NCBI GenBank assembly: GCA_947501605.1
Contig: CANMWZ010000010.1
Location: 1-64,000 of the forward strand
Length of the DNA: 64,000 nucleotides
From: Planctomycetota bacterium
GTDB taxonomy: Bacteria > Planctomycetota > UBA1135 > UBA2386
Direction of reading: 5' to 3'
In this document: piece after piece, positions 1-3,588 of the stretch
How the letters are laid out: each line of letters starts with the position of its first letter
How positions within the stretch are numbered: position 1 is the stretch's first letter
Notes under the pieces: generated by a model
Databases searched by the model: none
What the model saw: the letters and a program-made list of their open reading frames with translations, nothing else
Told to the model about the DNA's origin: nothing
Translations under genes and position numbers: made by a program

Positions 1-136
1 GCGCAAGGTGTCGCCCTGCACGATGCGGCAGGTCCGCGCGTCGTTGACGTTCCTGTACACGACGACGCTCGGGCGCCCCGTCGAAGTGGATCACCTGCCG
101 ATGCAGCGGCGGATGAAGCGGTTGCCGTTGGTCCTG
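1..136 (+). pseudogene. Truncated fragment of the tyrosine recombinase gene (identical copy of 643-778)
   Basis: Bases 1-136 read identically to 643-778 (encoding ...VSPCTMRQVRASLTFLYTTTLGRPVEVDHLPMQRRMKRLPLVL) and then diverge abruptly. The window edge cuts the 5' part. Confidence 0.8.
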
Positions 137-276
137 GCGTCCGTGTGCGTGCACCGCCGTCCCCCGAGGCCCTGCGAAGAATCCTCGCCAGCGCGCCGCC
201 TTCGACCCCGTGGACGGGCCCCATGGCCGCCAGGGTCACCCGGCTCGCGCCTCGGCCGCGAGTACTCTCCAGACCC

Positions 277-302
277 GTTGAACGAAGCCGCTTCGCGGCA
301 GC
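277..302 (+). repeat. Left terminal inverted repeat (begins with GTTRRRY core-like GTTGAAC)
   Basis: GTTGAACGAAGCC-GCTTC-GCGGCAGC versus the reverse complement of 2845-2869, GTTGAACGAAGCC-CGTA-GCGGCAGC: 13 + 8 bp identical. Confidence 0.8.
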
Positions 303-472
303 TACGTCCCGGTAGTTCGAGTCCACCCCGCAAGTTCCGTCGTTCCCGCCACCGTCCCCGCAGGGGTTCCGCATCCCCGCGATCAGGACGATCCCCGTAG
401 CGGTTGTTGCCCTTCCCGTGGCTGCTCACGACGGTCGCAGCCTTCCCTGTTCCAACGCCGACGGAGGGCGAC

Positions 473-1330
473 ATGGGCGAGCTTTGCGAGAAGATGCGTG
501 GCGATCTCAAGATTGCCGGTCACAGCCCGAGCACGACGAAGATCTACCTGATGTACGCGCGACAGCTGGCGCGCCACCACATGCGGTCGCCGGCCGAGAT
601 GGGCCGTGACGAGATCCGCGAGTTCATGCTGCATCTTGCCGAGCGCAAGGTGTCGCCCTGCACGATGCGGCAGGTCCGCGCGTCGTTGACGTTCCTGTAC
701 ACGACGACGCTCGGGCGCCCCGTCGAAGTGGATCACCTGCCGATGCAGCGGCGGATGAAGCGGTTGCCGTTGGTCCTGAGCGGCACCGAGGTGGGGCAGA
801 TCCTCGGCATGATCCGCAAGGACAGCTACCGCGTGATGGTGATGGCGATGTACTCGGCCGGCCTCCGCTCTCTTGAAGCGGTGCGGCTGCGCGCCAGTGA
901 CGTCGACAGCAAGCGCAACGTGATCCGGGTGGAGCAAGGCAAGGGCAAGAAGGACCGCTACACGCTGCTGTCGAAGCGGTTCCTGATCGAGTTGCGTGCC
1001 TACTGGGCGAAGCATCGGCCCGCAGGCCCCTGGTTGTTCCCGGGCGACACGGCCGACGGCCACATCAGCACCGAAGCCGTGCGCCGCGTCTTCACGGACG
1101 CCGTCGAGGCCGCGGGCATCGAGAAGCGCGTGCGCCCGCACTCTCTGCGCCACAGCTTCGCCACGCACCTGCGCGAGCTCGGCGTCGACCTCTCAGTGAT
1201 CCAGGCGTTGCTCGGCCATGCGAACATCAAGTCGACGGCGATCTACCTGCACACGTCGGTCGAGACGCTGATGAAGACCAAGAGCCCGCTCGACCACCTG
1301 GGCACCTCGACCGGCCAGGCCCTCGGGTAG
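473..1330 (+). CDS. Tyrosine recombinase/integrase (N-terminal SAM-like domain + catalytic domain)
   Basis: GGAGG RBS at 463-467 before ATG 473. Catalytic motifs GLRSLE (R), GKGKKDR (K), HSLRHSFATH (HxxR), LGH and TAIY (Y) are all present. Confidence 0.93.
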   Translation: MGELCEKMRGDLKIAGHSPSTTKIYLMYARQLARHHMRSPAEMGRDEIREFMLHLAERKVSPCTMRQVRASLTFLYTTTLGRPVEVDHLPMQRRMKRLPLVLSGTEVGQILGMIRKDSYRVMVMAMYSAGLRSLEAVRLRASDVDSKRNVIRVEQGKGKKDRYTLLSKRFLIELRAYWAKHRPAGPWLFPGDTADGHISTEAVRRVFTDAVEAAGIEKRVRPHSLRHSFATHLRELGVDLSVIQALLGHANIKSTAIYLHTSVETLMKTKSPLDHLGTSTGQALG

Positions 1331-1333
1331 GCG

Positions 1334-2599
1334 GTGCCGTCGGGGTTCTCGCGGCCTCGGTTCGAGGTCGCGGACATCGTGCGTGCGCACGAGGCGGAGC
1401 TGCGCCTTCGCCGTGTCGTGACGCACCGAGAAGCCAAGGTGCTGCGGCACATTGGCCAGTGCCGCACATTGTCTCTTGGCGGCCACCGCGACGTCTGCGA
1501 CGGCTGCGGCTACGAGAAGCTCTCCTACAACTCGTGCCGCGACCGGCACTGCCCGAAGTGCCAGGGGACCGAGCGGGCGAAGTGGCTCGACCGCCGGCTG
1601 GAGCACGTCCTGCCGATCCCGTACTTCCACGTTGTCTTCACGCTGCCCCCTGCCGTCCACGCGCTCGTGTTCGCGAACAAGGAGCTGCTGTACGCCGCGC
1701 TGTTCGAGGCGTCCGCGGGCAGCCTGCAACAACTGGCTCGCGACGAGCAACGCCTAGGTGCCGAGCTCGGCTTCACCTCGGTGCTGCACACCTGGGGCCA
1801 GAAGCTCACGTTCCACCCGCATGTGCACTGCGTCGTCACCGGCGGCGGGCTCCGCAAGGACGGCACGCGGTGGGTGGCTGCGCGCGAGCAGTACCTGCTG
1901 CCGGTGAAGCCGATGTCGCGGTTGTTCCGAGGGAAGTTCGTGGCCCTGCTGCAGGGTCTGCGCCGCGCAGGGGAGCTGCACCTCCCGGGGAAGCTCGAGG
2001 CCCTGCGCGACGACGCGACGTGGGCGGCGTTCCGCGCCAAGCTCTATGCCACGGAGTGGGTGGTGTACTGCAAGCCGCCGTTCGGCGGTCCGGAGCAGGT
2101 GTTCGCGTACCTGGGCCGCTACACGCACCGCGTTGCGATCAGCAACCATCGCATCCGCGCCTTCGCCGACGGCCGCGTGACGTTCGCCTATCGCGACTAT
2201 GCCGACGGCAATCGCAAGAAGGAGCTGGCGCTGTCGGGGGTCGAGTTTCTGCGGCGATTCCTGCTGCACGTCCTGCCGCGCGGGTTCGTGCGGCTCCGCC
2301 ACTACGGCCTGCACGCGTCGAGCAACGTGAGCACCAAGCTGGTCGAGGCGCGAAGGCTGCTGGGGGACGCCCCCGCGCCGGCCACCGAGGAGGCTTCCGC
2401 CGACGTGTCCGCTCCGGCGACGGCGGTCCGCCCCGAGCGAGCGCGAGCTGTCGTGCCGGCGAAGGAATCGTGGTGGGAGACGATCCTGCGGCACACCGGG
2501 GTCGACGTCCGGGCTTGCCCGCACTGCAAGACGGGCCGCCTGGTCCGCCATCCGCTGTGGGGATCGGCCGAACCGGCACGAGGGCCACCGGCGGCATGA
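1334..2599 (+). CDS. IS91-family rolling-circle transposase (Zn-binding N-terminus + Y2 domain)
   Basis: CDGC and SCRDRHCPKC zinc motifs, HVVFTLP, HUH motif HPHVH, Y2 motif YLGRY, RFLLHVLPRGFVRLRHYG, and C-terminal CPHC. Confidence 0.93.
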   Translation: MPSGFSRPRFEVADIVRAHEAELRLRRVVTHREAKVLRHIGQCRTLSLGGHRDVCDGCGYEKLSYNSCRDRHCPKCQGTERAKWLDRRLEHVLPIPYFHVVFTLPPAVHALVFANKELLYAALFEASAGSLQQLARDEQRLGAELGFTSVLHTWGQKLTFHPHVHCVVTGGGLRKDGTRWVAAREQYLLPVKPMSRLFRGKFVALLQGLRRAGELHLPGKLEALRDDATWAAFRAKLYATEWVVYCKPPFGGPEQVFAYLGRYTHRVAISNHRIRAFADGRVTFAYRDYADGNRKKELALSGVEFLRRFLLHVLPRGFVRLRHYGLHASSNVSTKLVEARRLLGDAPAPATEEASADVSAPATAVRPERARAVVPAKESWWETILRHTGVDVRACPHCKTGRLVRHPLWGSAEPARGPPAA

Positions 2600-2844
2600 G
2601 CTGGCTCGACGAACTCAGCAGGTCAGCGATTCCTCCCGGCCGATGGACTCGATCGGGCAGGGATCTTCGTCGTCGACGTCGGTCGTGCGCGGCGATTGCC
2701 AGAGCGATAACCCGCCATGGCGACCGGCCCTCGGTGTTAATCCGACCTGCCTTGGGCGGGGGCATGGAGCGGATCGGGTCCATCAGCCGAGGTCCTTGGG
2801 CGTCCGGGCCGAGGCGCGCGCTCGAAACCCCATAGGGCGGGGCC

Positions 2845-2869
2845 GCTGCCGCTACGGGCTTCGTTCAAC
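2845..2869 (+). repeat. Right terminal inverted repeat (ends in RYYYAAC inverse-core-like GTTCAAC)
   Basis: Reverse complement of 277-302, apart from a 4-5 nt central segment. Confidence 0.8.
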
Positions 2870-2952
2870 AACGAGTTGCGCGCATGCGCGATGTTGGCCG
2901 CCGATCGAGCGTTGCGGGCCTCGCGACGCGCGCAACTCGCTGTCTCTTAACC
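2863..2952 (+). other. attC-like imperfect palindrome (putative ssDNA recombination site)
   Basis: GTTCAAC - 5 nt - GTTGCGC ... GCGCAAC - 9 nt - CTTAACC. CGAGTTGCGCGC (2872-2883) and GCGCGCAACTCG (2928-2939) form a perfect 12-bp inverted repeat. Confidence 0.5.
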
Positions 2953-3112
2953 AGAGAACCGGCTCTCCCCAACTCTCCGGAGAGCACGCCGCCGAACCTG
3001 ACCGCGAGCCTCGCAGTACGAACCCGCACAACCGCGCCCATCACCCCGCCACCCGCCACTCTGCCGCAACCCCCGGCAACTCCACCCCTTCCACCCGCCC
3101 GCCACAAACGAC

Positions 3113-3143
3113 ACCGCCCCGTGGTTCATCACCACGAGGCGGT
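3113..3143 (-). terminator. Putative intrinsic terminator downstream of tRNA-Asn
   Basis: Minus-strand hairpin ACCGCCTCGTGG / CCACGGGGCGGT (one G-U pair), followed by GTCGTTT. Confidence 0.55.
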
Positions 3144-3166
3144 CTCGATCGCTGTCTCCAGCGAGC

Positions 3167-3242
3167 TGGCTCCTCGAGCAGGACTTGAACCTGCGACCCG
3201 GTGATTAACAGTCACCTGCTCTACCAACTGAGCTATCGAGGA
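3167..3242 (-). tRNA. tRNA-Asn(GTT)
   Basis: Reverse complement TCCTCGATAGCTCAGTTGGTAGAGCAGGTGACTGTTAATCACCGGGTCGCAGGTTCAAGTCCTGCTCGAGGAGCCA: 76 nt, cloverleaf, GTT anticodon, encoded CCA. Confidence 0.97.
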
Positions 3243-3588
3243 TTACTGCCGCAGCCTTGTCGGCCAACAGCGGCCGAGAACCGTAGCAACCGGCCTGTTC
3301 CGGTCAAGCGCGACCTGAAGGGAACTCTTGGGCCAAAGGCAGGATCCGCCGACGGTTGCGGTGCCTTCTCGAACCGGTCGCTCAGGCGAGGGGCCTGGGT
3401 TGGCGGCGTGGTCTTGGCGAGCGGCGGAAAGCCGGTGGCCACTCACCTCCTGCCTGCGGGCGCGGTAGCTGGTCCGAATTCTGCGGCGCACGAACTGCGG
3501 CGAAGCTGCAGACTCGACTCCGTTCGCGCTCCTTGATCGGAAACCAGATCCCGAGCCTTCGGCGACGGAGCCGTTGTTCAACCGGCTG

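Follow-up and report, generated by a model that had tools for sequence, protein, structure and literature searches.

The closest described relatives of the element studied here come from two bodies of work, one on the IS91 family of insertion sequences (IS) and one on integrons. PMC13181058 describes IS91 members as lacking terminal inverted repeats, making no duplication and using CTTG or GTTC as targets, and it sets out the layout of the terIS end. For integrons, PMC2727003 explains that extrahelical bases on the R''-L'' arm are a defining feature of an attC site, that removing them cuts bottom-strand recombination 6.2-fold and that changing the conserved G costs at most 2.8-fold. PMC4792948 argues that an insertion in the integrase IntI blocks a second, abortive exchange in integrons, and it raises a chicken-and-egg question about the origin of this insertion and of attC. 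The two fields already touch. The pairing of an IS91 transposase gene with an upstream tyrosine recombinase (YR) gene is known, bioRxiv 10.1101/542381 puts such IS91-linked (ISAzo26) recombinases in an 'Integron-like' subgroup without the IntI insertion, and ISShvi3 has been reported as a cassette (PMC9229058). Beyond the gene pair and that one remark on ISShvi3 our literature search, which left supplements, ISfinder/TnPedia and subscription journals outside, found no account of the anatomy of the ends or of a target rule. This work concerns one element with this gene pair, near the start of contig CANMWZ010000010.1 of the Planctomycetota assembly GCA_947501605.1; the 64,000 nucleotides (nt) analysed, positions 1 to 64,000, are called the window. 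The element is an intact member of the ISAzo26-type IS91 subgroup, probably cassette-like in its working and not a canonical attC cassette.

The whole mobile element occupies 278..2946 on the forward strand (2669 bp); its TT is shared with the flank, so 280-2948 is equally valid. In a genome of the same genus (G314, locus L108) the matches to 168-279 and 2947-3290 form one uninterrupted stretch, which is an empty site. Contigs of metagenome run X7 join 277 straight to 2947, and in run X6 the left flank of the window is present as a loose end at 2947; neither run is among those marked as possible sources of the window. We place the limits at 278 and 2946 because of these joints at 277|2947. There is no target-site duplication, and only the TT is common to both sides. 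G277 and the TTAACC at 2947-2952 are target DNA and lie outside the element, and the right junction is C|TT, not G|TT. The initial annotation began the element with GTTGAAC and ended it with GTTCAAC; the first sequence is present but its G belongs to the target, and the second lies 77 nt inside the element and cannot be its terminus. The host genome (4.6 Mb, 66% GC) holds no second full copy, so the element is single-copy there and its ends had to be defined from relatives and empty sites. Insertion is precise, of the form x|TT, without duplication, in one orientation and at a site specific to the lineage: about 230 nt behind a tRNA gene here, and elsewhere at integron attI or attC sites or at short palindromes.

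Both open reading frames are intact and both proteins keep their catalytic residues, which bears out the earlier reading of them as a tyrosine recombinase and a Y2 transposase. The recombinase (473..1330, forward strand, 285 amino acids, PF13495 and PF00589) has R132, H223, R226, H249 and Y258. The IS91-family Y2/HUH transposase (1334..2599, forward strand, 421 amino acids, PF14319 and PF04986) has the Zn motifs C55/C58/C73/C76, the HUH motif at 163-165 and Y259/Y263, and it scores 416 bits against NF033538 (cut-off 125); a search with it against the PDB gave no match. Against the IntI model TIGR02249 the recombinase reaches 189 bits, under the cut-off of 265, and its best PDB match is IntI4. 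The IntI-specific insertion, which the initial annotation had proposed to look for, is absent: about 41 IntI residues are missing from the recombinase, and the motif spacing is 60 residues compared with 100 in IntI. A single-sequence AlphaFold prediction of the recombinase gave no usable model (mean pLDDT 38.6). In a quick tree the IntI rows make their own branch, whose place among the element recombinases is not settled, and for that reason we claim no order of origin. The two genes are strictly coupled in position. The recombinase lies directly upstream of the transposase in 75 of 79 transposase loci, and the transposase directly follows in 71 of the 72 recombinase loci that have room for it.

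The ends of the element are complementary. The left arm (277..289, forward strand; the target G, the TT and GAAC onward), which would form an R'-like box after the ends join, is the exact reverse complement of 2857-2869 at 13 of 13 positions; at least 13 was reached in 4 of 2000 shuffles of both flanking regions. Beyond gaps of 5 nt on one side and 4 nt on the other, 295-302 pairs with 2845-2852 for another 8 bp, and with this extension the R''-like box spans 2845..2869 on the forward strand. It ends in GTTCAAC (2863-2869), followed after 5 nt by GTTGCGC. The inner hairpin (2872..2939, reverse strand) has a perfect 12-bp stem of 2872-2883 with 2928-2939, L''/L'-like, and G-T pairs lengthen this stem on the bottom strand. 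In the fold of the joined ends the R'-side spacer (2940..2946, forward strand) has 4 unpaired extra bases adjoining the crossover, and the L'-R' spacer is 9 nt. The region 2863-2952 folds with z = -4.2 as bottom strand and -3.0 as top strand. The complementary ends, the 5-nt spacing, the perfect stem, the missing extrahelical base and the 9-nt spacer had all been read from the letters beforehand and stand as they were. A chance origin of the end repeats was also considered and is ruled out by the shuffles and by control positions.

Three things had escaped the initial annotation. One is a terIS-like left end (280..299, forward strand), in which the tetranucleotide GAAC, read as GTTC from the bottom strand, is separated by 3 nt from a 5-bp palindrome at 287-299, a layout as in the IS91 of locus L226. 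Another is an oriIS-like motif (2824..2835, forward strand) that resembles the terminal oriIS of IS91/IS1294 and lies inside the element, some 110 nt short of its right end; it may serve as an origin. The third is a conserved target beside tRNA-Asn, discussed below. The bases beside the right end show no fixed tetranucleotide of the IS91 type.

Relatives from several phyla have a common plan in their sequences, made up of a terIS-like left end, an oriIS-like motif inside the element, a box whose sequence is complementary to that left end, and a hairpin. The limits of the homologous copies fall at these same motifs. The ori-like motif is followed by an R''-like box in 119 of 169 oriented loci (duplicates included); this order failed in 26 of the 137 loci with enough downstream DNA, where some loci are truncated and several have a box just under the cut-off. 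A terIS-like palindrome occurs in 69 of 83 distinct left ends, although the search pattern itself contains part of the stem. For the ori-like motif the AA lying outside the search pattern is present in 77 of 82 and 76 of 82 right ends. Among 82 non-redundant right ends, 57 have an inner stem of at least 9 pairs, compared with 19 of 410 control positions. Since pairing was itself the search criterion, this comparison with controls is the only part that counts as a test. The stem sequences are diverse, and a single position can show as many as four pair types. All four parts of the plan recur in ISAzo26 itself (NC_006824; transposase 46% identical): the left end, the ori-like motif in its internal position, the R''-like box and the hairpin.

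The two ends covary. In 36 distinct pairs, located by family profiles and with L019, L097 and L186 dropped by eye as doubtful, 409 of 468 positions match between the left end and the R'' box, while partners shuffled without regard to the relatedness of loci give a mean of 328 and a maximum of 360. The variable end columns change together, in a TT/GT/AA-type dinucleotide and in GAAC/GGAC/GCAC/GTAC. Conservation of the hairpin and of the end pairing, which the initial annotation had asked for, is thus found, and it comes with a bias toward the bottom strand: of the 59 end-pairing mismatches, 22 would be G-T pairs in the bottom strand and 5 in the top strand, and for 48 of 57 hairpins the bottom strand gives the better fold. 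Ungapped pairing of 12 or more out of 14 is seen in 28 of the 57 relatives, with no extrahelical base on the R''-L'' arm. Four or five extra nucleotides on the R' side occur in 21 of 35 AA-type ends, and 6 more ends were mis-called and show 5 such nucleotides when read by eye.

One side observation concerns the left end. Six loci (L028, L032, L150, L151, L159 and L222) carry a reverse insert at one and the same left-end position, after the G of the tetranucleotide and beside the palindrome. The insert probably corresponds to a group II intron, of which the 5' terminus is seen, and its position suggests that the bottom strand there offers a stem-loop target to the intron-like insert.

Where the element enters can be told from the junctions. 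In genomes with several copies (L010-L013, L014-L015, L050-L051) the right ends are constant up to a boundary just left of the core dinucleotide. For the empty targets of an alphaproteobacterial lineage, taken from four genomes, 53 of 74 matches show a gap of 4 nt and 4 show one of 6 or 7 nt (the control gave 13 matches), and at occupied sites all 4 nt stay on the right flank. Because the 4-nt gap stays wholly on the right, two bases must come in with the element. The right boundary and the empty targets therefore place entry where IntI cuts, two bases away from the cut at terIS. Two earlier analyses of the alphaproteobacterial targets had no discrimination, a first test of stem symmetry and a first gap-length search with 10 matches and 19 in the control. 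Exit cuts that differ from entry cuts would fit the junction sequences of near-identical copies, which vary in the dinucleotide before the terIS tetranucleotide. Genome G317 has 14 full copies with 0-14 differing columns, a constant right end and five such dinucleotides; L274 and L281 match completely in their interior but not in this dinucleotide. None of 13 distinct junctions in G317 has a dinucleotide equal to the right flank of the same copy, whereas 3 of 7 in G319 do. The core differs between lineages, and the alphaproteobacterial members use another one. Their palindromic targets stand in same-strand clusters 1-5 kb apart, mostly between genes of mixed orientation (L327 G320:C1, L328 G320:C12, L329 G319:C25), and such clusters could be a cassette-like system without IntI.

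The target of the window element is itself conserved. Its left half (250..277, forward strand, last base G) aligns to the empty site of G314 and to family target sites, and its right half (2947..2985, forward strand) consists of TTAACC and a CTCTC/GAGAG hairpin kept in 15 family loci. The landmark is a tRNA-Asn(GTT) gene on the reverse strand (3167..3242) with a terminator-like inverted repeat at 3114-3142. In the 15 family loci, chosen by eye as 14 of 29 non-self loci plus L004, the core G|TTAAC and the hairpin lie 222-244 nt from the tRNA end. Conserved structure in this target beyond the 4-bp stem was not found. Three family loci (L001, L002 and L008) carry element copies at similar tRNA-side sites, and a fourth, L003, holds a copy without its right end adjoining an empty site; with the window element these four form a single branch of 5 rows with support 100 in the quick tree. 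The 230-nt non-coding block behind tRNA-Asn is conserved in the family (window 2947-3160, L108-L128, L004), with variable DNA upstream of the GTTAAC core, and an Rfam search found the tRNA only and nothing for this block. By eye, the repeats that serve as targets in L010-L013 look like this block read in reverse.

We lean, by a modest amount, toward a model with two steps, the release of a bottom-strand circle by the HUH enzyme and the integration of its folded junction by the element's own recombinase. The Y2/HUH transposase would displace the bottom strand by rolling circle, starting either immediately outside the right end or at the oriIS-like motif inside the element, would end at the GTTC of the terIS-like left end and would close a single-stranded circle. 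Within this circle two pairings, of the left end with its R''-like complement and of the two arms of the inner stem, would give an attC-like two-box hairpin. As a sequence potential this hairpin has a bulge of 4-5 nt in place of the extrahelical bases. The IntI-related recombinase would then cut at the position used by IntI and exchange that strand with a target bearing the core dinucleotide, leaving a junction for host replication to resolve. The boundaries, the coupling of the genes, the covariation of the ends, the bottom-strand bias, the entry position, the IntI4 match and a host without detected IntI all support such a division of labour, as does the statement in PMC13181058 that IS91 inserts only its bottom-strand circle.

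Several points tell against this proposal of two enzymes. The shuffles behind the covariation treat related loci as independent partners, and 32 of the 59 end-pairing mismatches pair on neither strand. In 11 of 14 cases the two bases appear to be carried over from the donor's right flank, which is only suggestive (P = 0.03 under a uniform null and 0.13 by permutation). No joint of right end to left end occurs in the contigs of runs X1, X3, X6 and X7, though contigs cannot show absence. The recombinase lacks the insertion of about 41 residues, and its avoidance of a second exchange is left unexplained. A transposase start at the right end would need structure-guided cutting, because there is no fixed tetranucleotide there. 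In L012 the whole hairpin is duplicated from CAAG right after the ori-like motif, one case of a joint of the IS91 type. Hairpins are also substrates of HUH enzymes.

The L012 joint also speaks for another explanation, in which cutting and joining are both the work of the HUH transposase alone, with the paired ends as its guide as in IS91, IS608 or Helitrons, and the recombinase has a regulatory or resolvase function comparable to that of Orf121 in IS91. The intact terIS layout, GTNC tetranucleotides that match the sites IS91 tolerates and a recombinase without the IntI insertion are all compatible with it, and the bottom-strand bias fits HUH chemistry too. But the entry boundary lies two bases off the terIS tetranucleotide, the targets share a core of the YR type and no fixed tetranucleotide, the ori-like motif is internal, the recombinase has kept its catalytic residues, and insertions fall at the crossover points of attI and attC. 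We consider it unlikely that the HUH enzyme acts alone. Still somewhat less likely, in our opinion, is that the recombinase both excises and integrates the element, as a folded strand or a cruciform, and that the HUH protein, as in CTX-type phages, is only a replication initiator that uses the internal ori-like motif to amplify the circle. A nick at an internal motif would leave the hairpin behind if the element were integrated and copy everything if it were circular, which makes sense of its position, and entry at the YR position is expected. However, the conserved terIS-like left end would then have no role, clean excision does not predict variable left-junction bases in identical copies such as L274 and L281, and the left flank here offers no attC partner.

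The integron connection bears on the remaining alternative. Another Planctomycete lineage has element copies placed as cassettes in true integrons. In L014 an IntI gene (427 bits) is followed by the element as first cassette and then by genes with typical attC sites; the integrase there (900-2015) is transcribed toward its cassette array, in the same direction. The element follows an attC in L015, L095, L103 and L106, and an attI-like sequence, recognised by eye, in L088, L090 and L093. A home-made scan scored attC in 9 of 41 left flanks of the G|TT type, three of them doubtful. IntI is present in 12 of 19 family genomes, and no IntI over the cut-off was found in the host genome, which is 91% complete. 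The C|TT junction and the clean stem do not exclude IntI-like chemistry, because the losses reported in PMC2727003 are modest (loss of the extrahelical bases or the conserved G costs IntI1 3-6-fold). That the element is an ordinary integron cassette with two mobility genes moved by a host IntI is improbable, for all that these arrays, the report on ISShvi3, the frequency of IntI in the family and those small losses speak for it, given a host without detected IntI, the scarcity of attC in the left flanks, the different core of the alphaproteobacterial members and the 4-5 extra bases on the R' side. The initial annotation's idea of an autonomous cassette bridging IS91 and integrons fares well on the conserved ends and on the relatives that sit as integron cassettes, but two defining features of attC and the IntI insertion are missing.

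Other observations concern the surroundings and the junctions of copies. An exact repeat of 643-778 stands at the contig start (1..136, forward strand) and is the end of a truncated second copy upstream; in run X1 the unitig covering 250-778 has a depth of 24 compared with 12.8 for 749-2976. In three genomes (window 1-136, L001 at 712-990, and L003) truncated copies are stacked immediately upstream of the element where it occupies the tRNA-side site, and runs X1 and X6 show more short rearrangements at the left end. Elsewhere in the host genome, G000:C88:1-900 and G000:C50:23000-23902 are fragments of a related recombinase, both interrupted by stops; the C88 fragment has the left end of the integron-dwelling lineage, with an attC-like sequence before it. 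At several right junctions the final bases of the element are duplicated over 4-20 nt (L012, L015, L095, L104, L146, and run X6 at 2942). Head-to-tail tandems are found in L169, L178 and L047, with a right end abutting the next left end, the junction predicted for a circle.

We believe this copy adds a base-exact empty site in a host without detected IntI, the terIS and internal-ori anatomy, and the offset between entry and exit. The empty site and the host make it a clean test case. The ISAzo26-type subgroup is widespread, with 377 plasmid records matching the transposase at E<1e-50. A conserved end plan would give a precise mechanism linking rolling-circle transposition with integron-type single-strand recombination, and a hairpin substrate alongside a related enzyme without the insertion bears on the origin of the IntI insertion and of attC. 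It is possible, if doubtful, that ISAzo26-type elements are autonomous single-strand cassettes, in which an HUH-made circle is integrated through a bulged hairpin by an insertion-free relative of IntI, that they represent a pre-integron step from which attC and IntI derive, and that they may shuffle the palindrome-bordered gene clusters of alphaproteobacteria. If true, they would be a living model of that step, with the hairpin substrate first and the IntI insertion later.

Compared with ISAzo26-type elements, which as judged by ISAzo26 are alike in their two genes, gene order and ends (ISWz1, ISShvi3 and others presumably belong to the same group in ISfinder), the window element is a distinct Planctomycete lineage with its own tRNA-proximal target. 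Canonical IS91 and IS1294 resemble it in the Y2/HUH transposase, the terIS layout, an oriIS-like motif, the lack of a duplication and an implied part for the bottom strand. They differ in a transposase less than 30% identical and in having orf121 in place of the recombinase. Their oriIS is terminal and then followed by CAAG, whereas here the motif is internal with about 110 nt and the hairpin after it, the ends are paired in a 13-bp asymmetric, covarying inverted repeat, and the right flank is TTAACC and not a tetranucleotide target. An integron cassette likewise starts with TTRRRY after a G, has an inverse core near its end and a 5-nt R''-L'' spacing, and its attC shares the bottom-strand hairpin with R''/R' cores and L''/L' stem, the crossover position and, through the relatives, a place inside arrays. 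Unlike attC, this hairpin has no extrahelical base, has 4-5 extra nt on the R' side and continues its pairing for 13 bp outside the core. The central spacer of attC is near-symmetric and unpaired, with 5 versus 5-6 nt, and the 9-nt L'-R' spacer departs from it. Unlike integron cassettes, the element carries its own enzymes, with a recombinase lacking the IntI insertion and a core that varies by lineage. CTX phages use an HUH Rep protein and the host XerCD, which acts at dif on folded single-stranded DNA. The proposal made here resembles them, since an HUH-made single strand would be integrated by a tyrosine recombinase; CTX-type phages and strand-biased circularizing elements are mentioned in PMC9345347. 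Unlike those phages, the element brings a recombinase of its own and no phage genes.

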